Source of the DNA: Patescibacteria group bacterium
GTDB taxonomy: Bacteria > Patescibacteriota > Minisyncoccia > Phycocordibacterales > Phycocordibacteraceae
NCBI GenBank assembly: GCA_019752595.1
Contig: JAIELV010000001.1
Span: 312,486 to 376,485 of the forward strand
Direction: 5' to 3'
Length of the DNA: 64,000 nt
The notes below the pieces were generated by a model. That model ran no database searches. It was not told the origin of the DNA and worked only from the letters and a program-made list of their open reading frames with translations. The translations under genes and the position numbers were made by a program. Shown here one piece after another: positions 21,286 through 60,728 of the stretch; the first letter of the stretch is position 1; each line of letters starts with the position of its first letter.

Positions 21286-21389
21286 TTCGTAGCGCTAGAC
21301 CTGCGCTGACACGCGCTATACACTGAGGGTAATGGTCGGCACTAAATGCCACTTCTTGTTTTCTAATTCGCTTCCCTCATAATAAAACA

Positions 21390-22910
21390 ATGGCGCACCC
21401 CACAGACGAAATAATTCGCGCGATGCATTCGCCAACAGCGAAAGATACAGAAATAATTCGTGACGCGTATGATTTTGCGGAAAAAGCGCATGGGGAGGAA
21501 AAACGAAAATCAGGCGAGCCGTACATCATCCACCCACGTGCAATCGCTATAACACTTGCAAAGCTCGGAATGGACCGTGACACTATTGTCGCTGGGATCC
21601 TGCACGACACCATAGAAGACACACCTGTAAAACTTGAAGAGATTGAGAAGCGCTACGGCACAAACGTCGCCACGATGGTTGAGGGCGTTACGAAACTTTC
21701 AAAGTTGAAATACCGCGGTGTTGAACGACACGTGGAGAGTATGCGTCGACTGTTGGTCGCGACCGCAAACGACGTGCGCGTCATCATCATCAAGCTTGCC
21801 GACCGCTTGCATAACATGGAAACACTGCAGTATGTTTCTGAAGAAAAAAGAGCACGTATTGCACTTGAAACTCGTGAGGTGTATGTACCAATTGCTGAGC
21901 GGTTGGGTATGGGACTTCTAAAAGCGCAGCTTGAAGATTTGGCATTTAAAAATCTTGAACCAGAAAAATACAAGGAAACGGCAACATTTCTCGAGGAACA
22001 GGGGCAGAAAGCAAAAGGAGCTCTTGATGAAAGTGTGAAAGATTTGCGAAAGGCGCTTGCGGAAACGGGAATAAAAAACTTCAGAACCGAATCTCGTATT
22101 AAAAACGTTCACAGCTTCTCAGCAAAACTTGAACGCAAAGACAACGATATCGACAAGGTGTACGACATATTTGCTGTCCGTATTATCGTGCCGACTTCAG
22201 ACGACTGTTACAAAACCCTCGGCGTTGTGCATTCACTGTGGCGCCCTATCCCAGGACGTGTGAAAGACTACATAGCAAACCCAAAACCGAATGGCTATCG
22301 TTCAATTCACACCACTATTCTCACCCCGCAAAAGATTATCCTCGAGGTGCAGATTCGCTCGGAAGACATGCAGAAAGAAAGCAAGTTCGGCATTGCTTCT
22401 CACTTTGCATACAAGGACCAAAATGTGACAGAAAAAGCGGCTTCTCTTGGTTGGGCATTGCAGTTTATTCCTTCCCTGATGCGTGTCGTTCGCGGTGCTG
22501 GCGCTCAAACCGCAGCGCCCTTGCCTCGCTGGCTATCCGAGTTAAACGAGGCGGCAAATGTGTTTCGTGAACAAAAAAGTTTTCAGAAGGCACTGAAGGA
22601 AGATTTTTTTGCAGAGCGCATGTTCGTCTTTACCCCAAAAGGAGACGTCATTGACCTCCCTGTCGGTGCAACGCCTGTAGATTTTGCCTATGCCATTCAC
22701 TCGGATATCGGCAACACGATGGTGGGCGCAAAAGTGAACAGTAAACTAGTACAACTCTCAACTCCGCTCAAAAATGGTGACATTGTAGAAATAAACACGA
22801 AGAAAAATGCGCATCCAAACAAGAAATGGATAGACTTCGCGAAAACATCTTCCGCAAAACATCACATCAGAAATACGATAAGTAGAATCGAATCGGGTCA
22901 GAAACCGTAA
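21390..22910 (+). CDS. Bifunctional (p)ppGpp synthetase/hydrolase, short RelA/SpoT homolog (HD + synthetase + TGS, no ACT)
   Basis: HD motif ILHDTIEDT, synthetase YRSIHTTI, TGS FVFTPKGDVIDLP. Confidence 0.85.
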   Translation: MAHPTDEIIRAMHSPTAKDTEIIRDAYDFAEKAHGEEKRKSGEPYIIHPRAIAITLAKLGMDRDTIVAGILHDTIEDTPVKLEEIEKRYGTNVATMVEGVTKLSKLKYRGVERHVESMRRLLVATANDVRVIIIKLADRLHNMETLQYVSEEKRARIALETREVYVPIAERLGMGLLKAQLEDLAFKNLEPEKYKETATFLEEQGQKAKGALDESVKDLRKALAETGIKNFRTESRIKNVHSFSAKLERKDNDIDKVYDIFAVRIIVPTSDDCYKTLGVVHSLWRPIPGRVKDYIANPKPNGYRSIHTTILTPQKIILEVQIRSEDMQKESKFGIASHFAYKDQNVTEKAASLGWALQFIPSLMRVVRGAGAQTAAPLPRWLSELNEAANVFREQKSFQKALKEDFFAERMFVFTPKGDVIDLPVGATPVDFAYAIHSDIGNTMVGAKVNSKLVQLSTPLKNGDIVEINTKKNAHPNKKWIDFAKTSSAKHHIRNTISRIESGQKP

Positions 22911-42689: not shown

Positions 42690-43409
42690 TTATTTCTCTT
42701 TCAGGGCAAGTTCAATGAGTTGCTTCACTGCCTCATACGGCTGAGCGCCGGATAACGGGTATTTCTTTCCATTCTTTGCAACTACAATGCTCCACGGCGT
42801 GCCGTTGCCGCCAGTTGCGACGGCATTCTGCACGTGTTCTTCAATTTTTTGAGCATATTTACCACTTGTCAGGCAGATGTTAAATTTATTTTCATCAAGT
42901 CCAACATACCCTGCAATTTTGGGAAGTTCTGCGGGGTCGAGGCCGTTGTTGGCAGGAGTGACTTCCATAAGGCGATCCAAATACGCCCAGAATTTGTCGT
43001 TGCCCCCTAACTCTGCAGCGCATTCTGTAGCTTCCGCTTCTTTCCGTGCCCTCGAGTGTAGTTGATCAAGAGGAAAATGCCGATAAACCCACGCTACTTT
43101 ATCGCTGTCGCCGTATTCGGTCATAATCTGTTGCATAGTGGAGTGGAATCGCTTGCAGAACGGACATTCGGTATCCGAGTATTCAACGATTTTCACTGCA
43201 GCATTCGCATCACCTCGAATATGGTCTTCCCTCCCAACTGATTTCATTGCTTCAAGGTTGCCTGTCGGTTGTTGTACATCTTGCGGCTGTGGCACCACTG
43301 CAGCCCCTGCTCCATTACCGCCAAAGTAGAGCGCGAGAGCAATGAAAGCTCCTGCAATGACAATCGCGATAGGTGTTGATAGATTGTTTTGTTTTGATTC
43401 AGTTTCCAT
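42690..43409 (-). CDS. DsbA-family thioredoxin-fold oxidoreductase (membrane-anchored)
   Basis: Start at internal METESKQNN. CPFC active site and the DsbA fold pattern. Confidence 0.7.
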   Translation of the reverse strand: METESKQNNLSTPIAIVIAGAFIALALYFGGNGAGAAVVPQPQDVQQPTGNLEAMKSVGREDHIRGDANAAVKIVEYSDTECPFCKRFHSTMQQIMTEYGDSDKVAWVYRHFPLDQLHSRARKEAEATECAAELGGNDKFWAYLDRLMEVTPANNGLDPAELPKIAGYVGLDENKFNICLTSGKYAQKIEEHVQNAVATGGNGTPWSIVVAKNGKKYPLSGAQPYEAVKQLIELALKEK

Positions 43410-43480
43410 GTAATGACACTTACCAATTAAAGTAATAAACACTGCACGACTGAGTCGTGCAGCCGTTAGGAAAGCCGCCG

Positions 43481-43903
43481 TTAGAAAACCTTTCGATTTA
43501 AAATACCATTTGAAAAAAGCTCTTGTAGCAGTGTGGGCGGCAGATAATTTTCTCTGCGTGCAACACAGAAGATAGGTACGAGTGTCCTCCTCGGCTTTGG
43601 CCACCGCGCTTTAGTTCGAATCAACACAAGTGCGAACATGGCCAAAAGTAACAAAATCAAGGCCAAACCATCCTGCTGAGACATAGTCGTAAACATGCTC
43701 TGCCAGGCGGCAATATGCTGCAGTGGGGTCATGTTGCACACGACAGTTTTGCTGGTCATAAAAAGACAAGGCGACATGGTCATATCTCCGTCCGGGCCCA
43801 TCGTCACACTCAAGTGTTGCACTCCAAAAAACCCGAGAATAAGAAAGGCTATGAAGCCTAGAACGAGAGCCGTTTTCGCAATTTTTGCAATCAGGACGAC
43901 CAT
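43481..43903 (-). CDS. Membrane protein, hypothetical
   Basis: Three TM helices with conserved Cys. Confidence 0.4.
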   Translation of the reverse strand: MVVLIAKIAKTALVLGFIAFLILGFFGVQHLSVTMGPDGDMTMSPCLFMTSKTVVCNMTPLQHIAAWQSMFTTMSQQDGLALILLLLAMFALVLIRTKARWPKPRRTLVPIFCVARRENYLPPTLLQELFSNGILNRKVF

Positions 43904-44316
43904 TTAGTTTATTATAGCTTGTTTCGGACTATAGAAAAAACTATACTTCAAACGAGGCCGACGACCGAAACGATGCTAAACCACAACATAAGGATTTTTA
44001 AATTCATAAATTCATCATATCAAAGCCACTTTTTGCACTCATTTTTTGCAATCACGCATGAATCTCTGCTGAGATTCTGCGCGACCCCGCCTCAGTCGCC
44101 TCCGCTCCTTCCGGCTTTCCGAAGCTCCATGCATTCTCTTCGGAACCCCCGCGAAAAAAGAAAGGATGGGCAGGGCGAGGAAGCGCCGAGCGACTTTGTT
44201 TTGTTATGAGCAAAGCGAATTAAAAAACAAGAAGTGCCCTTTGTGGTGCGGAGCGAGGCGCGAATGGGCTTCCTAACAATTTTGCTTGAAATAGGTTCGG
44301 ACTTTTTCGTAAAGAA

Positions 44317-44464
44317 GCACCACAGGAAGACTTCCAAAATTTCGGGCTTCGCCCGTAGTTTGTGTGTGGAGATAAGACCAAGGAGTTAAGGCATTTCCGC
44401 GCGCAAGGCGCGCGGTGAGGGTGAGGTTGGAGCCGAAGATTTTCTGGAGGGAGGATTTTTGCAC
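44317..44464 (-). repeat. Left copy of a 148-bp imperfect inverted repeat (partner 48463-48610); contains a truncated copy of the recombinase 3' tail
   Basis: Reverse complement aligns with 48463-48610 over the same length. The terminal ~41 nt and ~45 nt are near-identical and the middle has diverged. Confidence 0.75.
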
Positions 44465-44557
44465 TAATTAGTTAAGAGTGCTTGCCCCACCCACCCAGTG
44501 CGCGCACAACATCCCTTCGCTAAAAACTAAGTAATTAGCGAAGGCTCCCGATATATT

Positions 44558-45334
44558 TTATTCACCAAAATATCTACCACCGTTTATGTGGAATGTTTGC
44601 CCCGTTATAAAATCAGCACTTGAGGATGCAAGATAAGAAACAAGGCGTCCAACCTCTTCGGATTTACCAAACCTGCCTAACATTGTACGTGATTTCCTTG
44701 CTTCGTTTTCTTCATCAGAAGCTTCCCCAAGTAGCATATCTGTTTCGATATAGGCAGGAGCGACGGAGTTAACAAGTATTTTTGGCGCAAGCTCTGTTGC
44801 AAGTCCGCGCGTAACGCCTCCAAGAGCTGCTTTTGAAACTGCGTAAGAGAATATCTCACTTTCTTTCGTGTAGTTATGCGCACTTGCTGAAGAAACGAAT
44901 ATAACTTTTCCTTTCGGGGCACGTTCGAGTAATGGTAATACTTTTCGCGTTACCATAACGGCTCCTTTAAGATTTGTAGCAATATGGTCGTCAAAATTTT
45001 TCTCGGTCAATTTTCTGAATGGCTGTTTGACAAGTATGCCCGCATTATTGACCAAGACATCCACGCGCCCGTGACGTTCTTTGACAATGCGAACCATTCT
45101 TTCTATTGCGGCTCGTTTTGTAACATCAGCGCGAATAAAAAGTGCCGAAACACCGCACGTATCAGCTTCATCTTTGAGTCGATCAACCTCTTCCTTGGAG
45201 GTTTCCTTATAGTTAATTACTAAGTCGCATCCATCGCGAGCCAGACTTCTTGCGATTGCCTGACCTATACCCCGTGTACCGCCGGTAATTAGAGCGACTC
45301 GACGAGTTTTTTCCTTCTCTTGAGCGACTGCCAT
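44558..45334 (-). CDS. SDR-family oxidoreductase (FabG-like)
   Basis: TGGTRGIGQAIA Rossmann motif and the YxxxK catalytic region. Confidence 0.8.
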   Translation of the reverse strand: MAVAQEKEKTRRVALITGGTRGIGQAIARSLARDGCDLVINYKETSKEEVDRLKDEADTCGVSALFIRADVTKRAAIERMVRIVKERHGRVDVLVNNAGILVKQPFRKLTEKNFDDHIATNLKGAVMVTRKVLPLLERAPKGKVIFVSSASAHNYTKESEIFSYAVSKAALGGVTRGLATELAPKILVNSVAPAYIETDMLLGEASDEENEARKSRTMLGRFGKSEEVGRLVSYLASSSADFITGQTFHINGGRYFGE

Positions 45335-45344
45335 AAACAGGTAG

Positions 45345-46280
45345 TTAAGATACTATAGGTTCAATGTTTTGGTCAAATAGCTTCGAAGCTCGTGCGCAAT
45401 ACTCGGCAATATGTTCTTTGAAGTATGGCGGATGCTGCTTTTGAATCTCGCCAATCAGAAAGTAGCTGATTGCTACTAATAATCCGTACCCTGCATCATC
45501 AGGAAGAGGGATAGTGAGATTTCTATCAAGTGGGGCAACTGGTGTTGGTTTGCCAAAGGAAATGAAAAACTCAGTCGGACTTGGAACAACTGTGGTTGCG
45601 TGTTTGGCTTGCTCATGCGTATATGTACGCCCCGATACGCGCGATCCGAAAAGCTCATCAAACTTTGTTAGTAGCATCGGCGCAATGAGACGCAAAGAGG
45701 TGGGGATAGTAATAAAAAAAGCATCAAACTTTTCAAAATCTTTTCTTACTTTCGGGATAACCGCGTTTTCGATAAAAGTGCGGATTTGTAGGGGACTTTC
45801 TTGAGTAACCGAAAGAATAATCCCTAAATATGTGGATGTATTGTATGTGTACGGCTCTCGGTTTTTAGGAAGCAGGAATATATCTTTTTTCTCAACATAT
45901 TCTCCAGCAAGAGGGGCGGGGTTGTGGGTTACGAGTATTGTTCGTAGCTTAAGTTTTTGAAAATCTTGGGCAATTCGTACCGCATGTTTCCCGCCGGAAG
46001 CAGAAATTAAAAGCGCCAGAATAATGTCTGGGTTTTCGGATACGACTTTTTCATAGTCGCTTTCATCTGCACAAACTGCGTTTTTCAAATACGTTGCCAA
46101 GATTCTGCCTGTGGCAGCCGCATTTACGCTTCCAACAATCAGTATTTTGCCCGAGGAGAGTTGCGGCAACTTAGGGATTCCATCACGTTCAAAACGCTCA
46201 AGAGTGGCAAGAACGCACACGTCAAGGGTTGGTAGTGTGTCTAAGCCGAACGCTTCAAGAATTTGCAGATAAGATTGCAT
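45345..46280 (-). CDS. SIS-like domain protein (putative sugar-phosphate isomerase)
   Basis: ILIVGSVNAAATGRIL and LISASGGKHAV segments resemble SIS-domain motifs. Weak. Confidence 0.3.
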   Translation of the reverse strand: MQSYLQILEAFGLDTLPTLDVCVLATLERFERDGIPKLPQLSSGKILIVGSVNAAATGRILATYLKNAVCADESDYEKVVSENPDIILALLISASGGKHAVRIAQDFQKLKLRTILVTHNPAPLAGEYVEKKDIFLLPKNREPYTYNTSTYLGIILSVTQESPLQIRTFIENAVIPKVRKDFEKFDAFFITIPTSLRLIAPMLLTKFDELFGSRVSGRTYTHEQAKHATTVVPSPTEFFISFGKPTPVAPLDRNLTIPLPDDAGYGLLVAISYFLIGEIQKQHPPYFKEHIAEYCARASKLFDQNIEPIVS

Positions 46281-46285
46281 GAGAT

Positions 46286-47029
46286 TTATTTTTGGGGACG
46301 TAGTGTGTGCATAGCAGCTAATAAGATACTCGTTTCTTTTACGCAATTACCACGAAAGTTGTCTTTCTCGAAAAACAGTGCCATGCGAGTCAAAAAATGC
46401 TCAAATACGCGAGGTTTAACCCAGTCCGGATTTAGAGCGAGAATTTTAGCTATGGTTGGCAGTGCTCGGTAACGGCCTGCGCATAGCGTATGATACACCA
46501 CACCCGCAAGTTCAAATTCTTTCGTGAATTTTCCGTAAATTTCTAAATCGAAGTCGATGTGTACCAGCCCTGTTTCGGGAGCAATCAACATGTTTGGCGT
46601 CCAGCGGTCGCCGTAGACGATACTTTTTTTGTGCGCAGAACGAAGGTCAGAGAAAAGGTCGTACACAGTTCTGTCGATATCCGCATCTGATGCCTCTTGC
46701 ATAAATTTATCTATGGTTTTTGCATTGTTTAAAAACCGATAGTACGGAACATCTTTTTCATCCACATATGCCGGCGGGATCACTCGCAGACCTTGACGTG
46801 CCGCATTGGTTGCGAATTGAACTTGCTCGGCGGAAGTACGTCTCCGGAAGCGGCCACCTAAGTCGGTAAAACCAATAAAGTGGTATTCGTGAGCGTTTTT
46901 GCGAATAATCTCTTTTGTAGTGTCTTTTGGGTTTCTCGTTAAAAACTCTCGTCCTAATTCATCGACTACAAACTCGTGCACGTTGAGCGCACCTTCCAAA
47001 GGTTCCCTAAATAGCTTTCTGAATTCCAT
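46286..47029 (-). CDS. Protein-kinase-like phosphotransferase (APH/choline kinase/Kdo kinase superfamily)
   Basis: VYGDRWTPNMLI catalytic-loop-like and LVHIDFDLE DFG-like motifs. Confidence 0.5.
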   Translation of the reverse strand: MEFRKLFREPLEGALNVHEFVVDELGREFLTRNPKDTTKEIIRKNAHEYHFIGFTDLGGRFRRRTSAEQVQFATNAARQGLRVIPPAYVDEKDVPYYRFLNNAKTIDKFMQEASDADIDRTVYDLFSDLRSAHKKSIVYGDRWTPNMLIAPETGLVHIDFDLEIYGKFTKEFELAGVVYHTLCAGRYRALPTIAKILALNPDWVKPRVFEHFLTRMALFFEKDNFRGNCVKETSILLAAMHTLRPQK

Positions 47030-47061
47030 TGTTGACTAATGACCATAGCAAGGAATAATTT

Positions 47062-48672
47062 TTGAGTCAAAAGCGGAGTTACAATATACCTATGTTGTAT
47101 TTCCTCTACGCCCGCAAAAGCACCGACAACGAAGACATGCAGGTGTTATCCATCGAGGCACAACTTTCAGAGTTGCGCTCACTCGCCAAAAAGGAAGGAC
47201 TAGAAATTGCTGCCGAATTCATAGAAAAACAATCCGCCAAAATGCCCGGGCGTCCACACTTCAACGAAATGATTGAACGTGTTCGCAAAGGCGAAGCAGA
47301 AGGAATCCTGTGTTGGAAATTAGATCGTCTTGCAAGGAATCCCGTTGATAGCGGGCAAGTGTCGTGGCTTTTGCAGAGTGAAATTTTGAAACACATCCGC
47401 ACACCAGAACGCTCCTATTTTTCAGAAGATAGCGTTTTGCTTATGTCTGTTGAATTCGGCATGGCAAACCAGTACATTCGTGATTTGGCATACAACACCA
47501 AGCGTGGACTAAGAGAAAAAGCACGTCGTGGTGAGTTTCCAAGCGTTGCGCCTCTTGGGTATCAAAATAATCCGCGAACGAAAAGAATTTATGTTGATAA
47601 AAAGAAATCACTTCTCATTCGGAAAGCGTTTGAGTTGTATGCCGAAGGCAACAAACGATTAGAAGATATTTCACAATTCCTTTTTGAGAACGGCATCAAA
47701 ACCAAGGCGCAAAAACATTGGGGCAAGAGCGCGGGCGGAAAGCGCCTTGCCAAAGACGGGGCTAAGAAAATCCTCACCACAACCTTTTACTACGGCGATT
47801 TCTACTATTCCGGCGAGTGGTACAAGGGTACGCACACACCGATAATCACGAAACAGCTTTTTGACCAAGTGCAAAAAGTCATTGAGGCGCGCGGACATGT
47901 GCGCAAGAGCGCAAAGAACGACCCGCAAGCATTGTGTGGGTTACTGCGTTGCGGTTCGTGCGGCTGTTCCATAACCGCCGAAGTCATAACCAAGAAAAAG
48001 CAGAAGAATGGAATCGTACATCGGTACACCTATTACCGGTGTACGAAAAAGAGAGGTGCATGCGCCGAACCATACATCCGTGAGGAAGAACTGACGGCTC
48101 AACTTTCTCTAACACTTTCCAGTTTTGCTTTGCCCGAAAAATGGGCAAAGGAGATGTTTGCCTTGGCTGAAAAAGACGAGAGGGATTCGGGCATTTCCGC
48201 GACGGGCGCCCTGCAGGGACTGCGCGACCGAATTAGCGACATAGATTCCAAACTCGCCCGCCTTACCGACCTCTATGTTGAACAGGATATTGAGCGCGAT
48301 GCATACCTTGAACGCAAACGCTCTCTGATGTCGGAAAGGCGGTCATTGGACGAGCAAATCGTGCGTTTAGAGAAGGACGCGACAGCGTGGCTCCAACCAC
48401 TCCGTATGTGGATAAAAGACGCTGAAAACCTTAACCAAATTGCAAAATCCACGGACAAAGCCGTGCAAAAATCCTCCCTCCAAAAAATCTTCGGCTCCAA
48501 CCTGCATCTTTCCGCGCGCGAAGTTTCAGGAAATGCCTTAATGCCTTGGTCATATCTGCACGGGGGAACAGCGGGCGAAGCCCGAAATTTTGGAAGTCTT
48601 CCTGTGGTGCGCCGGGTTGGATTCGAACCAACGGAGACCGAAGTCAGCAGATTTACAGTCTGCCCTCGTTGA
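47062..48672 (+). CDS. Large serine recombinase (resolvase/invertase catalytic domain + recombinase domain + Zn ribbon + coiled coil); true 3' end uncertain
   Basis: YARKSTDNEDMQ...SIEAQ serine-nucleophile motif and LDRLAR. CGLLRCGSCGC...YYRCTKKRGAC zinc ribbon. The open frame runs into tRNA-Tyr. Confidence 0.85.
   Translation: MSQKRSYNIPMLYFLYARKSTDNEDMQVLSIEAQLSELRSLAKKEGLEIAAEFIEKQSAKMPGRPHFNEMIERVRKGEAEGILCWKLDRLARNPVDSGQVSWLLQSEILKHIRTPERSYFSEDSVLLMSVEFGMANQYIRDLAYNTKRGLREKARRGEFPSVAPLGYQNNPRTKRIYVDKKKSLLIRKAFELYAEGNKRLEDISQFLFENGIKTKAQKHWGKSAGGKRLAKDGAKKILTTTFYYGDFYYSGEWYKGTHTPIITKQLFDQVQKVIEARGHVRKSAKNDPQALCGLLRCGSCGCSITAEVITKKKQKNGIVHRYTYYRCTKKRGACAEPYIREEELTAQLSLTLSSFALPEKWAKEMFALAEKDERDSGISATGALQGLRDRISDIDSKLARLTDLYVEQDIERDAYLERKRSLMSERRSLDEQIVRLEKDATAWLQPLRMWIKDAENLNQIAKSTDKAVQKSSLQKIFGSNLHLSAREVSGNALMPWSYLHGGTAGEARNFGSLPVVRRVGFEPTETEVSRFTVCPR
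48463..48610 (+). repeat. Right copy of the 148-bp inverted repeat; its last 6 nt are the 3' terminus of tRNA-Tyr
   Basis: Alignment with 44317-44464 as above. The repeat ends ...cttcctgtggtgc, and tggtgc is the reverse complement of tRNA-Tyr ...GCACCA. Confidence 0.75.
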
Positions 48673-48690
48673 CCACTTGAGTACCGACGC
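48605..48690 (-). tRNA. tRNA-Tyr (anticodon GUA), long variable arm, CCA encoded
   Basis: Acceptor GCGUCGG/CCGGCGC (one G-U pair), anticodon loop CUGUAAA, T-loop TTCGAAT, 3' ACCA. Confidence 0.85.
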
Positions 48691-48738
48691 AAACGGGTAT
48701 GCAGGAGCATACCCGTTTCGGGAGTGTATCACTTTTAT

Positions 48739-51432
48739 CTAGTTTTTTGAACCCGAAGCAATAGTCGCTCTGTGTGCCTTGGTCGCACGAGCGCTCTTCT
48801 TTACATCAAACACAAACTCCTTGCCCTTGAGCCCCACCGTCACTGTTCCCCCTTCCATAACGCCCTGAGACACCATAAAAGATGCAACGGGGGTCAGAAT
48901 CTTTGACTGAATCAGGCGCTTCAATGGTCGTGCACCATACTGCGGGTTATAGCCTTCCGTAGAAAGAAATTCATACACCTCGGGCTTAATCTCAAGTGTG
49001 ATGTCTTTTGTTTTCAAGCGTTCCTCCACAATCTTGACCTGCATGTCTACGATATTCTTGATAGCAGCAGGCGAAAGAATATCGAAGATAATAATTTCGT
49101 CCAAGCGGTTCAGGAACTCTGGTCGGAAGAAATCCTTCAGGCGCTCCGTCACTTTATCCTTAATCAATCCATACTGGCCTTTATCGTCGCCCTGTGTTTT
49201 CGAGAATCCGAATGTCGACATTTTGTCGATAAATTCCGCTCCGATGTTTGAAGTCAGAATAACAATCGTGTTCTTGAAGTTCACCTTTCTTCCCTTTGCA
49301 TCCGTCAGGTGTCCGTTGTCTAAAACCTGCAGAAGAATGTTAAACACCTCAGGGTGTGCTTTCTCAATTTCGTCGAACAAAACAACCGCATACGGACGGT
49401 GACGCACTTTCTCAGTCAGCGTGCCTCCTTCTTCGTGACCCACATACCCTGGCGGAGAACCAATGATTTTCGAGACGGAATGCTTCTCCATGAACTCAGA
49501 CATGTCGACACGGATAATCGCACCATCATCGTCGAACATAAATTTCGCAAGTGCTTTTGAAAGTTCTGTTTTACCAACACCTGTTGGACCTAAGAATAGG
49601 AATGAGCCTATCGGGCGGTTCGGGTCTGCAATACCCACACGTGAGCGTTTTACCGCATCTGACACGGATCTCACTGCGTCGTCCTGCCCTACCACCTGAC
49701 CTTTCAATTCTTCTTCCATTCGCGCGAGCTTTTTCGCTTCCGCTTCGAGCATGCGCGACACAGGAACTCCCGTCCACTTCGAAACCACCTGAGCAATATC
49801 AACGTCAGTTACTTCTTCTTTCAACACACGACGCGAACGCTGGAAGCGTTTCAGCTTGTTCATTTCATTCTCAAGCTCTTTCGCCAACGACGGAAGTTTG
49901 CCGTAGCGAATTTCTGCCGCGCGACCCAAATCTGCACGCGCTTCTGCTGATTCTGCTTCGCTCTTCAGCTGGTCTACCTCTTTCTTTATCTTACCGATTG
50001 CGGCAAGCACTTCTTTCTCATTCTTCCACTTCACCTCCAAATCAGCGGTCGTTTCGCGCAATTCTGCTACATCTTTTTCAATCGCCTTGATGCGCGTTTT
50101 GGTGTTTTTGCCTACGTTATCCGCTTCGTCTTTTTTGAGTGCCGCAAGTTCAATCTCAAGACGGCGAATCTTTCTGTCAGTCTCTTCGAGAAGTGGGGGC
50201 TTATTCTCAAGTGCGATTTTCATCGCAGACGCCGCCTCATCGATGAGGTCAACGGCTTTGTCAGGCAAGAAGCGGTCGGTGATGTAACGGCTGGAAAGTT
50301 CTACCGCCGCAACGATAGCGTCGTCAGTGATGCGCACGCCGTGATACAGCTCGTACTTATCGCGCAGACCGCGCAAAATAGCAACCGCATCTTCCGTTGA
50401 CGGCTCATTTACATACACAGGCTGAAAGCGGCGCGTAAGTGCGGGGTCACGTTCAATGTGTTGCTGGTACTCCTTCAGGGTCGTGGCACCGATGATGCGC
50501 ATGTCGCCGCGAGCCAAGGCGGGCTTCAGCATGTTGCTAGCGTCCATTGCACCTTCTGCGGCTCCTGCGCCCACGAGCGTGTGAATTTCGTCGACGAAGA
50601 GAATAACTTTCCCTTCGGCCTTCTCCACTTCTTTCATGATTGTCTTCAATCGCTCCTCAAACTCTCCGCGGTATTTCGTGCCCGCAATCAGAAGTCCAAG
50701 GTCGAGTGTCAAAAGTTCTTTATTTTTCAGAGATTCAGGAACGTCGCTCACCGCCATTCTCTGCGCGAGCCCTTCCGCAATTGCGGTTTTACCCACGCCC
50801 GCTTCACCGATTAAAATCGGGTTGTTTTTTGTACGACGGGAAAGTATCTGAATCACGCGGCTGATTTCTGAATCGCGACCAATGACAGGGTCCAGCTTGT
50901 TGTCCTGCGCGAGCTTGGTGAGGTTTCTGGTGTATTTGGTAAGTGTGCGCATTTTTTTCGGTTCTTGTGGCTGTGTGTCCCTGCCCTGCTTGAATTCTTG
51001 AATGACCGATACCACCGCGTTTCTGTCGACGCGAAAACGATTGAAAATTTCCGCTGACGGTCCTGGGTGCTGAAGCACGCCGAGGAACAAATGTTCAACA
51101 GACACAAATGACTCACCGAATGTGCCTGCAATTTTGACTGCCGCTTCAAGTGCCTGTGCCAAATCTGGCGTGAGGTACAACTGGTAGCTTGCTGAAAGCA
51201 CTGAACCCGCAGGAGGTGCTTCAAGTAAATCAATAACGGAATCGGTGAAAAGAACGGTGTCGACATCCAAACGCTCGAGTATCGCAACCACGGGCGATTC
51301 TTCCTGCATCAAAAGAGCGGCAATCAGGTGCAATGAAGAAACGTGATTCTGTCCACGTTCGATCGCAAGCTCGTGCGCTTTACGCACTGCTTCTTTTGCC
51401 TTCGTTGTGAAATTTCCAAATGGAGGTGGCAT
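48739..51432 (-). CDS. clpB: ATP-dependent chaperone ClpB
   Basis: Two AAA+ modules ([16 protein letters not shown]), M-domain coiled coil, Clp N-domain. Confidence 0.9.
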
Positions 51433-57590: not shown

Positions 57591-57666
57591 GGCCTGGTGG
57601 CGAAGAAGCTAACGCGGCGGTCTGCAAAACCGCTATACAGGGGTGCGAATCCCCTCCAGGCCTCCA
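57591..57666 (+). tRNA. tRNA-Cys (anticodon GCA), CCA encoded
   Basis: Acceptor GGCCUGG/CCAGGCC, anticodon arm GCGGU-CUGCAAA-ACCGC, T-arm AGGGG-TGCGAAT-CCCCT, 3' UCCA. Confidence 0.85.
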
Positions 57667-57728
57667 CAAACTTTTTAGAAAGAATAAGGAATGCGTCTAG
57701 AGTTTTTTGGTATAATGCGTGTACCATT

Positions 57729-58265
57729 ATGTCGCGCAAACGTTCTTGGACGGTGGAGGAACTGAAAAAAGCTGCTGCAAGTTCAACTAGTTACCGCCAG
57801 GTCATGAAAAAACTGAATCTGCGTGCTGCGGGTGAAAATTACGCTCAACTTCAAAAGTATTTAAAAGAGAACGACATAGACACTCAACATTTCAAAGGTA
57901 TTGCCTGGAATAAAGGTTTGCGAGGAATCGGCAAACCTCAGATACCACTTGAAAAAATCCTTGTTGAGTACAGTACATATCAAAGTTTTAAACTTAAAAA
58001 GCGTTTATTTAATGCAAAGTTGAAGAAACCATCTTGTGAGGAATGTGGCTGGGCGAAAATTGCCGAAGGAGGTTATTTACCTTTAGAGCTTGACCATATC
58101 AACGGTAACAGACATGATAATCGATTAGAGAACTTGCGAGTTCTTTGCCCGAACTGCCATAGCTTAAAACCTACACATCGTGGCAGAATGGGGAGAGGAA
58201 AAACGAAAAAACCTCTAAGTCGGGATGGTGAAATTGGTAGACACGCAACACTTAAGATGTTGTGA
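57729..58265 (+). CDS. HNH homing endonuclease (phage-type, N-terminal WT..EL helix-turn-helix-like module)
   Basis: LELDHINGNRHDNRLENLRVLCPNCHS HNH motif. The upstream open frame (from 57597) overlaps tRNA-Cys; start taken at the internal ATG. The 3' end overlaps the first 47 nt of tRNA-Leu. Confidence 0.75.
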   Translation: MSRKRSWTVEELKKAAASSTSYRQVMKKLNLRAAGENYAQLQKYLKENDIDTQHFKGIAWNKGLRGIGKPQIPLEKILVEYSTYQSFKLKKRLFNAKLKKPSCEECGWAKIAEGGYLPLELDHINGNRHDNRLENLRVLCPNCHSLKPTHRGRMGRGKTKKPLSRDGEIGRHATLKML

Positions 58266-58305
58266 CCGAAAGGTCGTGTGGGTTCGATTCCCACTCCCGG
58301 CACCA
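58219..58305 (+). tRNA. tRNA-Leu (anticodon UAA), long variable arm, CCA encoded
   Basis: Acceptor GUCGGGA/UCCCGGC, anticodon arm CAACA-CUUAAGA-UGUUG, T-arm GTGGG-TTCGATT-CCCAC, 3' ACCA. Confidence 0.85.
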
Positions 58306-58312
58306 CTATAGA

Positions 58313-59842
58313 TTATCTATCATTCCCTATCCGAAACTGATACAACGTCGGCGGTAAGAAAAAATAGATAGGATTAAATTTTGCCTTAAATGTTGAAAAA
58401 CCTTTCCACGAGGAATCTTCTCCCTGCTTCCAAAAATTTCCAAGATCGATAAAACGTACTCCTGATGCAAAAGATTCCTTAAACCATTTATCAAAAAGCC
58501 CCGTCATCAAAGGCTCGTCGCGCACTTCAGGTAAGAAAAAACCACCTTGATAGTAGGACAGCGGAAGCGCGGATGAGCGTAAATGTGCCACGCCAGCGAG
58601 AATTTTTCCGTCGCGCTTTCGACGAGCGACGAGGAATGTCATTTTGGTTTTTGGGTTTTTGCGTCGAAAATCCATTTCATACAGCATTCCGTCTTTCAGT
58701 GTGAGCGGTAATGTGCTTTTGCTGTAGGCTTTTCTAAATTCGTCAAAATCAGTTTCTTCAAGTGAATACGTATCGGCGCATTCAGATGCAAAACGCTTTC
58801 GGTCTCGCTTTCCTGTTTCTGACCACTCTCGCCAATACTCTGCGGTAAGCGGTATAAACCCAATTTTATACGCAGGCTTATCTGAAAACGCAATCCATTT
58901 TTTCGGAACGTCCAAGCGTCCCATTCTCTGCCACATCACCAGCCGTACGGGCTTTTTTTTGTCGTGAGACAACGGCAGCACCTCGGGCTCATGATCTCCT
59001 TCGTATTGCTCAAAAGAAAACGGCCACAAATTCCAATAACTTCCTCGCGGTTTCTCGCCTATGCGTGCAGGATGAAAATAACGAGGAATGCTTTCAAACG
59101 TGTTCAAGTCAGGCCACTGCCGAAGTGGGCGGTACCCGTCAGTGGCACATTTCTCAACGGTACCCCTTTGAAAGAGACCGACATAATTCCAGCTAAACAG
59201 CCACTCCCTCAGTGAGTGGAAAACAGTTCGTATCGGGATAAATAATTCTTTGTTCTTATAGACGTTTGCCAGCAGATACCCCTGCGGAGAAAGTCTCTGA
59301 TGAACAACAGTAAGAAATTCCACGTCAGCAGACAATAATGATGGTTGCTGTCCGCGAAACAAATCAATAACAATGAGGTCAAATTCTTCTTGTATTTTTT
59401 GTACCGCGTTCTTTGCGTCGTCGCAGATCATCGTGGGAAACGGATACGGCGCATAGAGTTTTAATTCTTTCGCGAGTGCAATCATTTCGGGGTCATGCTC
59501 AACAACAGTAAGCGTGGCTTCGGGAAATACACGCGAAATCATTTTCAATTCCCCACCACCACCAAGGCCGAGAAGCAGTATTTTTTTAATTCGCTGAGTA
59601 CCTCGGTACCGAGTAAGCACCTCAAGCGCATACTTCCACATAGCGTGAACCTCAGACCCCGTCTGCTCAATTCCATCAACACTTACCTGCCACGAACCGA
59701 ATTTTCGAATCGCAGTAATCGTTCCGTTTTTCTCCGACTGTCGGACAATAGATTCTGAAAACCAAGACATTAATGAGCATTGTACCCGAAGCGAGTATCG
59801 ATAAAGCATTGCCTCAAACGAAAAATTAGTTACTATACACAA
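58313..59842 (-). CDS. Fusion protein: spermidine-synthase-like SAM methyltransferase/aminopropyltransferase fold (N-terminal) plus FemAB/GNAT-like acyltransferase-like domain (C-terminal)
   Basis: ILLLGLGGGGE...VVEHDP...ICDDA...DLIVIDLF spermidine-synthase-like motifs. The C-terminal ~250 aa resembles aminoacyl-transferase/FemAB-type folds. Weak. Confidence 0.5.
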   Translation of the reverse strand: MCIVTNFSFEAMLYRYSLRVQCSLMSWFSESIVRQSEKNGTITAIRKFGSWQVSVDGIEQTGSEVHAMWKYALEVLTRYRGTQRIKKILLLGLGGGGELKMISRVFPEATLTVVEHDPEMIALAKELKLYAPYPFPTMICDDAKNAVQKIQEEFDLIVIDLFRGQQPSLLSADVEFLTVVHQRLSPQGYLLANVYKNKELFIPIRTVFHSLREWLFSWNYVGLFQRGTVEKCATDGYRPLRQWPDLNTFESIPRYFHPARIGEKPRGSYWNLWPFSFEQYEGDHEPEVLPLSHDKKKPVRLVMWQRMGRLDVPKKWIAFSDKPAYKIGFIPLTAEYWREWSETGKRDRKRFASECADTYSLEETDFDEFRKAYSKSTLPLTLKDGMLYEMDFRRKNPKTKMTFLVARRKRDGKILAGVAHLRSSALPLSYYQGGFFLPEVRDEPLMTGLFDKWFKESFASGVRFIDLGNFWKQGEDSSWKGFSTFKAKFNPIYFFLPPTLYQFRIGNDR

Positions 59843-59973
59843 ATCCCGCCCACAGCTGCAGTTGGTAAGCCGCCTACGGCGTCTTGCTCCAGCTGCGCTC
59901 GGACGTCATGAGAGCAAGCTCTCGCGACGCTCCTCGCTGGCTGGAGTAGAGCAGTTTTTTAAAGTACAGATAT

Positions 59974-60046
59974 CCGCCCTTAGCTCAGTTGGTAGAGCAG
60001 CTCCCTCTTAAGGAGACGGTCGTAGGTTCGAATCCTACAGGGCGGA
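59974..60046 (+). tRNA. tRNA-Lys (anticodon CUU), no encoded CCA
   Basis: Acceptor CCGCCCU/AGGGCGG, anticodon loop CUCUUAA, T-arm GTAGG-TTCGAAT-CCTAC. Confidence 0.8.
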
Positions 60047-60484
60047 CTCGCGAAGCGAGTCCTGTAAAGAGAGCGCTGGTGGGCGCATCCTTACCCTGAA
60101 AGCCTGCCCGGTGCGCGTAGCGCCAGGCTTACAGGGCGGACTGAAGCGTAGCGTAAGGACGCCCTAGCAAGTTCGGGGAACTTGCGTGTAGGATTCGAAG
60201 ACCTTGTGAGCATTTTTTCAGAGCATGCGAATGAAAAAATCCACAAGGTGTACTGCTCCCGTAGGGAGAGAATCCTTCCCTATGTACAGGGCGGACCATG
60301 ACAAAAACGCCTCCCATGCGGGAGGTTTTTTGCTTGGTCCGCGGGCGCAGGTATATTTTTGTTTACCGAAGGTAAGGCAAAAATACCGAGCCGGGGATCG
60401 CGGAAAATCTCCGTCAGGAGATTTATCCGTGTCCGGACCGCGACGAGAGCTGTGACGACGGAGGTCCTGCCTACAGAGCGGACT
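60036..60484 (+). repeat. Four direct copies of the tRNA-Lys 3' segment TACAG(G/A)GCGGAC(U): 60036-60048 (in the tRNA), 60130-60142, 60285-60297, 60472-60484 (one mismatch), separated by hairpin-rich spacers that include a degenerate T-arm copy
   Basis: Read directly. gtaggattcgaagacc at ~60189 mimics the tRNA-Lys T-arm gtaggttcgaatcctac. Confidence 0.7.
60304..60331 (+). terminator. Hairpin cctccc-atgc-gggagg followed by T6 (intrinsic terminator-like)
   Basis: Lies within the tRNA-Lys to tRNA-Leu spacer. Confidence 0.5.
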
Positions 60485-60594
60485 TATAGTAAAGTTCCTG
60501 ATATTGTATAGAACAGTCGCTGGGGTAAGCAAAGCTTTCCTCAGCTCGTTCGAAGAACATAGAAATGCTAACATCTCTATGTTCCTTCTCACTC

Positions 60595-60675
60595 GCTGGG
60601 GTGGTGAAATTGGTAGACACGCCTGCCTTAGGAGCAGGTCCGCAAGGGTTGGAGGTTCGAGTCCTCTCCCCAGCA
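60595..60675 (+). tRNA. tRNA-Leu (anticodon UAG), long variable arm, no encoded CCA
   Basis: Acceptor GCUGGGG/CCCCAGC, anticodon arm CCUGC-CUUAGGA-GCAGG. Confidence 0.85.
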
Positions 60676-60728
60676 CAAAACAGCTAATTCCCAACAAATG
60701 TGCTACACTTAGTATAGCACAAGGTGGG

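Follow-up and report, generated by a model that had tools for sequence, protein, structure and literature searches.

The question raised by this locus is why a large serine recombinase (LSR) gene that runs into a tRNA gene should lie between two long, inverted copies of its own 3' coding end. The locus is part of a 64,000-nucleotide stretch of Patescibacteria DNA, hereafter the window, and the repeat within it very probably marks an LSR integrative element that resides at the end of tRNA-Tyr and carries a second, inverted attP-like site. The initial annotation had offered two readings, an integrative islet at tRNA-Tyr with the left repeat as a border remnant, or an invertible segment.

The left arm (44317..44464, minus strand) and the right arm (48463..48610, plus strand) are each 148 nt long, in the positions originally given, and when the left arm is read as its reverse complement they align without gaps, 122 of 148 positions being identical (82.4%). 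The near-identical ends and diverged centre are borne out by measurement, with 40 of 41 positions matching in the inner section (98%), 44 of 69 in the centre (64%) and all 38 in the outer section (38/38, 100%). Each conserved block is found at exactly two places in the 64-kb window, where shuffled sequences would yield none, and the 148-bp unit is therefore not a dispersed repeat, abundance being a possibility that had been raised. The right arm represents the 3' coding end of the recombinase gene, which would form the P arm of an attR site, and the left arm is an inverted copy of this same P arm. The inner block of the right arm (48463-48503, plus strand) encodes the motif VQKSSLQKIFGSNL, which is under constraint as DNA, its synonymous sites being conserved across the family, and the conserved repeat ends coincide with DNA-level-constrained segments found family-wide, in agreement with their supposed resemblance to recombination sites.

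The recombinase gene (47092..48672, plus strand) encodes 526 aa from its ATG, with an alternative TTG start at 47062, and its product matches the Pfam families Resolvase (PF00239, E=2.5e-20), Recombinase (PF07508, E=5.1e-14) and Zn_ribbon_recom (PF13408, E=1.2e-8), all above the gathering scores, which upholds the large serine recombinase of about 530 aa that had been called. The catalytic residues R8, S10, D12, R79 and R82 are invariant in a 24-sequence alignment that includes the window protein, in which every family-invariant residue is present and the nucleophilic serine lies within a YxRxS motif. Comparison with the recombinase of a related locus (L083) gives dN 0.095, dS 0.81 and dN/dS 0.12, and at the codon level the gene is seen to be under purifying selection. 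Directly upstream, at 47032..47059 (plus strand), a consensus scan picks out a promoter-like site (TTGACT, 16 nt, AATAAT), such sites being no more numerous in the region than expected from shuffling.

The recombinase ORF runs antisense into an intact tRNA-Tyr(GTA) gene (48605..48690, minus strand; ARAGORN, Rfam 54.5 bits), its last 21 codons being antisense tRNA-Tyr sequence. The right arm ends at 48610, inside the 3' terminus of the tRNA as had been noticed, and covers the final 6 nt (GCACCA). Read on the plus strand, these give the core TGGTGC of the putative attR (48605-48610), and GCACCA recurs on the plus strand in the outer 6 nt of the left arm (44317-44322), where it forms a core common to the tRNA 3' end. 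Judged from sequence, the right arm is attR, made up of the P arm, the core TGGTGC and the tRNA, which supplies the B' arm; with this attR at tRNA-Tyr and the LSR domains in place, the earlier proposal of a tRNA-Tyr-associated integrative element driven by an LSR holds.

Immediately outside the left arm, 44273..44316 (minus strand) is the sole significant nhmmer match in the window (E=1e-9) to a profile of the P' arm built from 42 loci. This P' arm, which is kept across loci regardless of host or tRNA, codes for an alternative end of the recombinase, LLYEKVRTYFKQNC and then a stop codon. It is succeeded at 44143..44272 (minus strand, left limit approximate) by a GC-rich tail that is homologous to the same region of L083 and L105 and has a 53-nt insert (44190-44242) in its midst; in most loci P' is likewise followed by a GC-rich hairpin region, and in the attP configuration the recombinase gene has this tail as its native 3' untranslated region or terminator. 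A complete attP-like site, running from P through core and P' to the GC-rich tail, is thus made up by the left arm and 44143-44316; it is inverted and is a hallmark of the family. The non-coding gap to the left of the repeat (43904-44316) is 413 bp long rather than the 650 bp reported, and within it 43914-44040, read directly from the sequence, is possibly a still older fragment.

The two half-sites differ in spacing in a manner that matches known attP/attB geometry, with the P-type motif further from the crossover. A CGAAC box lies at +18 in P' (44295-44299 in the window) and at +14 in the tRNA flank, where it forms the T-loop box of tRNA-Tyr (48624-48628), 4 nt closer to the core, and this arrangement is found in 40 of 45 loci, the window included. 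According to PMC3783163, the same recognition box of phage-type integrases is placed at a greater distance from the crossover in P-type than in B-type half-sites, and the LI integrase model has the zinc-ribbon-domain motif shifted by 5 bp between attP and attB. In the present family the shift comes to 4 nt rather than the 5 bp of that structural model.

How general this anatomy is can be seen from a survey of the LSR family, which is very large in Patescibacteria and numbers 4763 proteins at E<=0.001, with at least 584 confirmed matches among the 600 matching stretches listed from species-representative genomes. The inverted copy is present in 58 of 63 evaluable homologous loci in Patescibacteria genomes, at 100% identity in 19 of them; the window's pair (82%) is among the most diverged, and its left copy may therefore be decaying. 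The copy is absent from five loci for which 3 kb or more of upstream sequence is available, and is hence not indispensable for residence. The repeat reaches 3-6 nt into a convergent tRNA in about 40 loci, with tRNAs for Leu, Val, Ser, Tyr, Glu, Gln, Thr, Arg, Gly, Lys, Phe and Asn as targets, and the terminal pentamer common to repeat and tRNA varies with the type of tRNA (TGGTG, TGGAG, TGGCT, TGGTA). About 85 of 120 homologues have a C-terminus encoded by the antisense strand of a tRNA T arm ('GFEPT'), the LLYEKVRTYFKQNC tail ends 13 of the 120 full-length homologues, and recombinases at least 90% identical to one another carry differing tRNA tails and also the P' tail. Fifteen loci (14 genome loci and a further one, L084) have, 1-7 kb to the left, a third site, attL, composed of host sequence, core and P'; in all of them attL, inverted attP and attR have a common core, the B arms of attL are unrelated host sequence and its P'-tail is identical to that of the inverted attP. 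In relatives, then, a three-site anatomy is shown at the sequence level, with a core that varies with the target tRNA and P- versus B-type CGAAC spacing.

The comparison of tRNA-Tyr sites for presence and absence that had been suggested can be made among 12 metagenome contigs with the same tRNA-Tyr 3' half, none from the window's own species: about 8 of the 12 have unrelated DNA directly after TGGTGC and represent empty sites, and 2-4 of the 12 are occupied. In the 64-kb window itself no attL was detected, so integration there is read from the relatives rather than from a full triad of sites.

A mechanism can be proposed in which attP overlaps the 3' end of the recombinase gene and is composed of a P arm, which takes up roughly the final 140 nt of the coding sequence, then the 5-6-nt core, P' and the GC-rich tail. 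Integration would be a conservative crossover between the attP core and the identical last nucleotides of the tRNA (N72-N73-CCA; GCACCA in tRNA-Tyr), and its product attR would comprise the recombinase 3' end, the core and an intact tRNA, as in the right arm at 48463-48610. Complete relatives run from attL (host, core, P', tail) through cargo A, the inverted attP and an optional cargo B to the recombinase, attR and the tRNA, and of this the window holds only the part from inverted attP through attR, its left side having probably been truncated or rebuilt, given that no attL is detectable. Genes that join the recombinase to P' do exist, in the 13 of 120 full-length homologues mentioned above, and one contig (L085) is compatible with a 9.4-kb circle; no circular overlap that would attest the putative excised circle was found in any contig examined. 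Contigs with a recombinase-P' joint could be assembly-graph chimeras across the repeats. No recombination directionality factor was identified.

The cargo between the arms consists of three genes on the minus strand. The SDR reductase that had been recognised is confirmed as a FabG-like protein (44558..45334; Pfam adh_short_C2, E=1.6e-57), its NCBIfam matches all falling below the equivalog cut-offs. The next gene (45345..46283) encodes 312 aa, or 333 aa from an upstream TTG at 46346, and the label 'SIS-like' finds no confirmation, the protein having no sequence match in Pfam, NCBIfam or PDB. For the 247-aa product of the third gene (46286..47029), 'kinase-like' survives only as a weak similarity to Bud32/RIO-type kinases: all Bud32 matches are sub-threshold, that to NCBIfam Bud32 (E=1.3e-4) lying far under the cut-off, and TP53RK is matched in PDB at E=0.47.

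The alternatives differ in what they predict for the left arm and its flank. If the recombinase or homologous recombination flipped 44465-48462, the exchange of the C-terminal tail of the recombinase would act as a switch; tRNA and recombinase would stay intact in either orientation, the flipped recombinase ending in LLYEKVRTYFKQNC, a tail that does occur in 13 of 120 full-length homologues, among them proteins that fall in the same 90% clusters, and the many repeat pairs of 100% identity are what frequent exchange predicts. Such inversion is nevertheless improbable, as no flipped case is found among the 58 repeat-bearing genome loci (some 45 linked to a tRNA), no recombinase being joined to P' and no tRNA lying at the left arm, where an estimated 7 or so flipped loci would be expected if the 13% of P'-tailed forms were chromosomal (p ~3e-4). 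The P'-tailed genes lie instead on short unbinned contigs with cargo after the tail, as an excised or tandem form predicts, and a site of attP type would here have to pair with one of attR type, a combination that serine integrases do not recombine according to the abstract of PMC3783163. The invertible segment of the initial annotation accordingly finds no flipped counterpart among the tRNA-linked loci. That the arms are the terminal inverted repeats of a 4.3-kb unit (44317-48610) moved whole, as in Tn4451/Tn5397, is very improbable. The arms do stop exactly at the core, and neither the window nor L083 has an attL, their recombinases differing by dS 0.81 against 1.7 to >4 for flanking host genes; from these two observations the inverted attP-attR module seems to have been moved or replaced without a visible attL. 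The repeats are, however, not physical ends, since P' and tail (at least 170 nt of element sequence) continue beyond the left arm in every locus and attL lies still further left in complete relatives, the inverted P'-tRNA joint expected after excision is seen at no tRNA-Tyr site, and homologous replacement via conserved flanks would explain the dS contrast equally well.

It is also extremely improbable that the left arm is a functionless 3' leftover of an older, oppositely oriented recombinase gene. The 82% identity of the window's copy, with 64% in the centre, would suit such a relic, as would the possible older fragment in the gap further left. Against it, the same arrangement recurs in the 58 of 63 loci, whose recombinases are only 46-65% identical to that of the window; the arms are often 100% identical; the left copy has its own 10-nt insertion, common to 12 loci; and the core orientation fixed by the tRNA cannot yield an inverted insertion. 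Of the original view of the left arm, its att-related rather than random origin stands, and its roles as left border and as decayed remnant fall away: the true border in complete elements is attL, 1-7 kb further left, and the arm belongs to a complete inverted attP with its flank.

A reading that is compatible with the second attP-like site rather than an alternative to it makes the repeat chiefly a structured RNA or transcription signal, which is somewhat doubtful. The antisense strand of the P arm would serve as a substitute terminator for the tRNA, whose own would have been displaced to attL, a role that is possible rather than probable; the left copy might, with about the same reservation, insulate the recombinase from outside transcription. 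The folding and covariation check that had been advised is positive, in that all eight pairs of the P-arm hairpin (48572-48584 in the right arm) change on both sides (8/8; covariation score 0.527 against 0.17 in shuffled and slid controls), and A-C mismatches exceed G-T by 8 to 2, which favours the antisense strand. In the left arm a terminator-like hairpin, CGGGCTTCGCCCG (44343-44355), with a T-rich tail is called on the plus strand, and the host B arms at attL include terminator-like hairpins. On the other hand, the repeat matches no Rfam family, the window hairpin beside the tRNA has no T-rich tail, and a terminator role leaves the retention of the core and both half-sites unexplained.

Conserved synonymous sites in the inner-end motif, the covarying P-arm hairpin and the 10-nt insertion of the left copy speak for function in the inverted attP, and for this site we infer a functional module that binds recombinase away from the crossover and insulates; it may control the reaction or the level of recombinase, and its likeness to its partners may be maintained by gene conversion. 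A role in accessory or regulatory binding is put forward tentatively, a mainly bidirectional transcription insulator with more doubt, and a substrate for flipping in the excised form is unlikely. It is rather unlikely that the inverted attP is a cis-acting third site governing the reaction, with recognition of the T-loop and CCA end that all tRNA genes share and specificity reset via a few attP nucleotides. If this were true, the third site could permit attL x attR recombination without a separate directionality factor or, as another option, invert one half of the excised circle against the other in the manner of the 2-micron plasmid, and the enzymes would constitute a new class of tRNA-end-targeting serine integrases.

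In its resolvase, recombinase and zinc-ribbon/coiled-coil architecture the protein resembles the integrases of Listeria A118/LI, Bxb1, phiC31 and SPbeta SprA, and the proposed reaction, attP x attB giving attL and attR with a short common core, is that of phage-type integrases. It differs from these in that tRNA gene 3' ends are the target, the 3' coding end of the integrase gene itself forms part of attP, the conserved P arm spans about 140 nt as against about 25 bp, a second, inverted attP lies inside the element, and the elements are islets of 5-9 kb without phage genes, none of which was found in IMG/VR. Use of tRNA gene 3' ends by a serine integrase was in 2020 called not previously reported (PMC7192596). 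The literature search found no published description of the inverted-attP layout, in line with the initial view that it is not a described system, and an inverted attP inside an LSR element, common to many such elements in Patescibacteria, would seem to be new.

The best NCBIfam neighbours of the window LSR are XisF of Anabaena (E=1.8e-24) and CcrB of SCCmec (E=5.6e-22), although it is an equivalog of neither, with scores of 78-87 against cut-offs of 375-900. For SCCmec too the insertion point is the 3' terminus of a conserved gene of the host, which is left intact; the targets of SCCmec Ccr and XisF are protein genes, unlike the tRNA target here, and we know of no internal inverted att site in their elements. 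Tyrosine-integrase islands have at their far end a direct repeat of a tRNA 3' fragment of tens of nt, whereas here the recombinase is of the serine type, only 5-6 nt of tRNA are shared and the long repeat is inverted, and such an island was rejected. The res site of Tn3/gamma-delta is about 120 bp long and multi-part, its extra parts being accessory and also repressing transcription; the site here may likewise be long and multi-part, with a second CGAACC box at the inner end of the repeat, some 110 nt in from the core, although the Tn3/gamma-delta enzymes are small resolvases acting at directly repeated sites. The excised circle, if formed, would resemble the yeast 2-micron plasmid (FLP/FRT) in having two inverted repeats of about 300 bp, each with a recombinase site, that would split the predicted circle into two unique segments, whereas FLP is a tyrosine recombinase and here no isomers were observed and no replication genes were found in the cargo sampled. 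With Hin, Gin, Cin and Pin the locus shares a serine recombinase gene beside or within a segment between inverted sites. Those enzymes are of about 190 aa with a C-terminal helix-turn-helix and use 26-bp sites and an enhancer, as against 526 aa with integrase-type C-terminal domains and attP- and attR-type sites here, and a Hin/Gin-type switch, for which both orientations would be expected in nature, was rejected, no flipped state occurring among the 58 genome loci that carry the repeat. Several of the homologues are named 'DNA invertase Pin-like' by JGI.

The inverted repeat that encloses the cargo segment is real, with 44317-44464 (reverse complement) matching 48463-48610 without gaps at 122 of 148 positions. 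As the initial annotation had described, conserved ends surround a diverged centre, identity being 98% over the inner 41 nt, 64% over the central 69 nt and 100% over the outer 38 nt, and each of the two conserved blocks occurs twice in the window and not at all in shuffled sequence. The right arm corresponds to the 3′ end of the coding sequence for a 526-aa large serine recombinase (LSR; 47092-48672, plus strand) with Resolvase, Recombinase and Zn_ribbon_recom domains, whose reading frame extends antisense into tRNA-Tyr(GTA). Look-ups for the identical protein, from either of two alternative starts, gave no recorded entry. Because the tRNA gene spans 48605-48690 on the minus strand, the right arm overlaps its last 6 nt (GCACCA). 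Rfam searches of 43800-48750, at the gathering threshold and at E≤1, returned nothing besides the tRNA, and base composition does not set the element apart from its surroundings. Among the cargo genes the SDR reductase has been confirmed, the kinase-like gene retains its similarity to Bud32 but only below threshold, and the two cargo proteins other than the SDR, one of them labelled SIS-like, are without significant sequence match. The gap to the left of the repeat (43904-44316) measures 413 bp and not the 650 bp once assigned to it. Beyond this gap, the DsbA-like ORF as listed (42690-43604, GTG start) overlaps a 140-aa membrane ORF (43481-43903) by 124 nt; an internal ATG (METESKQ..) is more likely to be the true start, giving a protein of about 235 aa as in L083, a homologous contig.

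In the sense of the LSR, the left arm can be read without a stop as VQKSSLQKIFGSNL...GSLPVV, beyond which the frame continues as LLYEKVRTYFKQNC before reaching a stop codon. Of 120 homologues, around 85 have a C-terminus derived from the antisense tRNA T-arm ('..GFEPT') and 13 terminate with an 'LYxxARTYF' tail, which is the same tail as is found in the left-arm flank of the window. A census was taken of 80 loci from species-representative Patescibacteria genomes, with LSRs 46-65% identical to that of the window and drawn from at least 584 confirmed matches. Upstream of the LSR gene, 58 of the 63 evaluable loci carry its 3′ end a second time as an inverted copy of 55-219 nt, which is 100% identical to its partner in 19 of these 58. 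The right copy stops 3-6 nt inside a convergent tRNA in about 40 loci, covering at least 12 tRNA types, and the terminal pentamer common to both copies (TGGTG, TGGAG, TGGCT or TGGTA) tracks the N72-N73-CCA of the tRNA. The outer flank of the left copy, in every locus and regardless of host or tRNA, is conserved as ..CTnTACAAC...GCTCGAACCTATTTTAGCAAAAAT followed by a GC-rich hairpin region. As judged from these alignments, this flank is element sequence and not host DNA, and the left site is evidently a complete attP (P arm, core, P′ arm and tail) in inverted orientation, with the right site representing attR (P arm, core and tRNA).

Among contigs that share the 3′ half of this tRNA-Tyr, some sites are empty and others occupied, with the break exactly at TGGTGC. 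Moreover, LSRs that are at least 90% identical are found beside differing tRNA sequences and also joined to P′, which argues for recent mobility. That the element integrates by recombining the attP at the LSR 3′ end with the tRNA 3′ end, in a conservative crossover within the 5-6-nt core, is strongly supported, as is the outcome, in which the tRNA is restored and the LSR is left reading into it. Across the genome loci of the census, integration always proceeds via the recombinase-attached attP and never via the inverted copy, though the two are often identical. In P′ a CGAAC box is found at +18 from the repeat end, and the T-loop CGAAC of the tRNA is at +14, a 4-nt shift that is seen in 40 of 45 loci including the window. 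In a structural model of a Listeria-phage integrase, the motif for the zinc-ribbon domain is 5 bp nearer the crossover in attB than in attP (PMC3783163). From the box-spacing shift and this model, P′ therefore behaves as a tRNA-mimicking P-type half-site with the T-loop as the B-type motif, and the attP appears to mimic the T-loop at the spacing that the model predicts. The resemblance to a plus-strand tRNA at 44240-44322, where neither ARAGORN nor Rfam reports one, is that of this tRNA-mimicking arm. Within IMG/VR only distant relatives of the LSR (at most 36% identity) were found, and the family is therefore not phage-borne there.

An extra copy of P′ and its tail, in direct orientation, is located 1-7 kb to the left of the inverted attP in 14 genome loci with long upstream sequence, as well as in the homologous locus L084. 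Identity of this copy reaches 100% across some 145 nt, and ahead of it come the same core and, before that, unrelated host DNA (for example terminator hairpins or a neighbouring tRNA gene); with its host arm, this site is attL. Complete elements of 5.4-9.1 kb consist of attL, cargo A, the inverted attP, an optional cargo B, the recombinase, attR and the tRNA. The cargo varies widely, encompassing HaeII-type restriction-modification, type I and III methylases and Shedu SduA together with a diversity-generating retroelement, an M23 peptidase, a class II aminoacyl-tRNA synthetase and a radical-SAM enzyme; the cargo sampled contained no genes for replication or transfer. Stretches of 25-35 nt resembling the P arm are present in the host-side arms of attL at two loci (L033 3900-3930 and L058 4688-4710) and at two otherwise empty-looking tRNA-Tyr sites (L089 and L091), and may be scars of earlier elements or mark a new element integrated into an old attR.

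Several features suggest that the inverted copy is functional. It has been retained in 58 of 63 loci, in a family whose proteins have diverged to about 50% identity, and diverged repeat pairs differ least, by 2-5%, in the 80 nt adjoining the core. The LSR motif SLQKIFGSNL (48472-48503 in the window, and the same motif in loci L001-L080), with the DNA consensus TCCCTCCAAAAAATCTTCGGCTCGAACCTC, falls at the inner end of the repeat; its synonymous positions are much more strongly conserved, at a third-position entropy of 0.42 bits, than those of three other invariant motifs of the gene (1.0-1.27 bits). This DNA holds a second GCTCGAACCT box, the same as that of the P′ arm, and the two conserved ends and diverged centre of the window's repeat match the constrained blocks of the family. 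In many loci a GC-rich palindrome, CGCGCGCGAAGCGCGCG, follows the motif; in the window it is intact only in the left copy (44404-44422) and not in the coding copy. Covariation within the repeat was also borne out, since a P-arm hairpin changes on both sides at 8 of 8 pairs, with a score of 0.527 against 0.17 for controls. The stem-loop corresponds to columns 140-160 of alignment A4 (P arm, L004-L080), within the C-terminal coding region of the LSR, and the peptide encoded there is poorly conserved. The clade of the window has only a short CGGGC-GAA-GCCCG hairpin nearer to the core (48572-48584 and 44343-44355). Mismatch types in the P-arm hairpin slightly favour the antisense strand, and the hairpin would suit a role in terminating tRNA transcription in place of the tRNA's own terminator, which would have been displaced to attL.

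In 12 loci (L005, L010, L011, L012, L014, L020, L022, L023, L033, L035, L039 and L051) the left copy has an insertion of about 10 nt, TTTGAATTTT, that splits the inner GGCTCGAACC box and that the coding right copy lacks. It follows that the left copy is non-coding and evolves under constraints of its own, and the insertion may be a left-copy-specific feature or a promoter element. A small protein made from the left arm was rejected, as the 63-aa ORF at 44273-44464 has no family match and the insertion frameshifts the left copy in those 12 loci. A role for the left arm as an operator of the LSR promoter is unlikely in general, with the distance to the gene ranging from about 80 nt to 9 kb across loci; in the window the promoter-like site is 2.6 kb from the left arm.

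The inverted attP would be a non-crossover, recombinase-binding and insulating module, whose likeness to its partners would be maintained by gene conversion. Tentatively, its role may be accessory or regulatory, either in the reaction or in recombinase dosage. That it is mainly a bidirectional transcription insulator or terminator is more doubtful, and a sequence retained with no function at all is highly improbable. The initial annotation had also considered an invertible segment, a model that finds no support in the survey: in no genome locus is the recombinase joined to P′, and in none does a tRNA lie at the left arm. That the inverted attP serves for flipping in the excised form is unlikely. 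The P′-tailed LSR genes are found on the short unbinned metagenome contigs L081, L082, L085 and L086 with cargo following the tail, a pattern that fits an excised circle, a tandem array or an assembly-graph walk across the repeats. Circular (terminal) overlap was found in none of 17 short contigs, L085 included. Many contigs begin 50-140 nt outside the left arm, which is not evidence of flipping because an inverted repeat of assembler k-mer length suffices. For cargo A, the only related pair (L011 and L012) is collinear, one pair being too small a sample to judge flipping.

Contig L085 (9232 bp) begins inside the inverted P copy and finishes inside the inverted tail, ends that are compatible with a circle of about 9.4 kb bearing two inverted attP sites. 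Among its cargo are an N6/N4 methylase, a DEAD/ResIII helicase and genes for tRNA-Phe and tRNA-Arg. At L084 (11340-11661) the LSR runs into 25 nt of P′, which are followed by the 5′ portion of a tRNA-Leu pseudogene and, directly after it, by an intact tRNA-Leu. This joint has the appearance of a gene conversion that began in the inverted attP and passed over the core as far as the shared CGAAC, with rescue by the duplicate tRNA.

In the window itself, element-derived sequence extends from about 44143 to 48610, the left limit being set by homology with L083 and a second relative, L105. BLAST of the gap and left arm, together with a P′ profile search (best extra E=0.59), found no attL or direct-orientation P′ in the 64 kb. 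L105 is at the same tRNA-Tyr with the window's ClpB right flank, and its repeat, intact as is that of locus L075, is 146 nt long with 99.3% identity. L083, also at this tRNA-Tyr, shares the DsbA-cluster left flank, has no visible attL and ends inside the tRNA. Between the inverted attP and the LSR, the window carries the SDR gene and the two genes without a match, L083 a single 212-aa gene and L105 Shedu. The LSRs of the window and L083 differ with dN 0.095 and dS 0.81, and in the neighbouring DsbA-like and membrane genes synonymous sites have reached saturation (dS 1.7 to >4). Purifying selection thus acts on the LSR, and the module is more recent than the DNA around it. We infer that, once the hosts had diverged, the module was exchanged or replaced, most plausibly by homologous recombination through conserved sequence on both of its sides, that of the tRNA and recombinase and that of the inverted attP; this would explain the swapping of cargo too. 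Movement of the repeat-bracketed unit itself is very unlikely. The window (57591-60676) and L105 (18927-19674) share synteny over a tRNA-Cys, Leu, Lys, Leu cluster and in the ClpB/tRNA-Tyr neighbourhood, and the window's host is therefore a relative of the metagenomic Patescibacteria genome to which L105 belongs.

Serine integrases are valued tools for genome engineering and, to our knowledge, have been thought to avoid tRNA genes. The family described here shares their enzyme and their attL/attR logic, but is unusual in its tRNA 3′-end target, in an attP lying partly within the coding end of the integrase itself, in a conserved P arm of about 140 nt with an inner box and hairpins, and in its internal inverted attP. 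A 2020 paper described the use of t(m)RNA genes by serine integrases as 'not reported previously' (PMC7192596), and the present family represents a very large natural LSR clade with precise insertion at the 3′ ends of at least 12 tRNA types. No description of the inverted-attP arrangement was found in the literature searched, to which this absence is limited. The second attP is conserved, often perfectly identical, and has flanks that are constrained as DNA even within coding sequence, and we know of no explanation for it in current models of serine-integrase directionality. The mobile elements of Patescibacteria are poorly known, and since these islets bear restriction-modification, Shedu, diversity-generating retroelement and metabolic genes they may be a main route of accessory-gene exchange.

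Several smaller features surround the left site of the window. The GC-rich tail contains a 53-nt insert (44190-44242), absent at this position in L083 and L105, that is 85% identical to 21344-21396 on the minus strand. The latter copy lies just upstream of an ORF starting at 21390 and resembles a promoter or 5′ leader (..CTCATAATAAAACAATG), and the segment may be a small promoter module, either mobile or duplicated. At 43914-44040 there may be a second inverted attP of like orientation, older and decayed, on a sequence similarity that is weak and below BLAST significance. Here, GCTTG..TTCGGACT at 43915-43932 resembles the P′ arm (44284-44303), and the sequence at the left arm's inner end (44455-44464) recurs as TTTTTGCACT at 44030-44039. 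Finally, TGTGGTGCG forms a 9-nt direct repeat between 48602-48610, spanning the core and the tRNA end, and 44242-44250 in the tail at the edge of the 53-nt insert, which may be due to chance or be the trace of an old junction.
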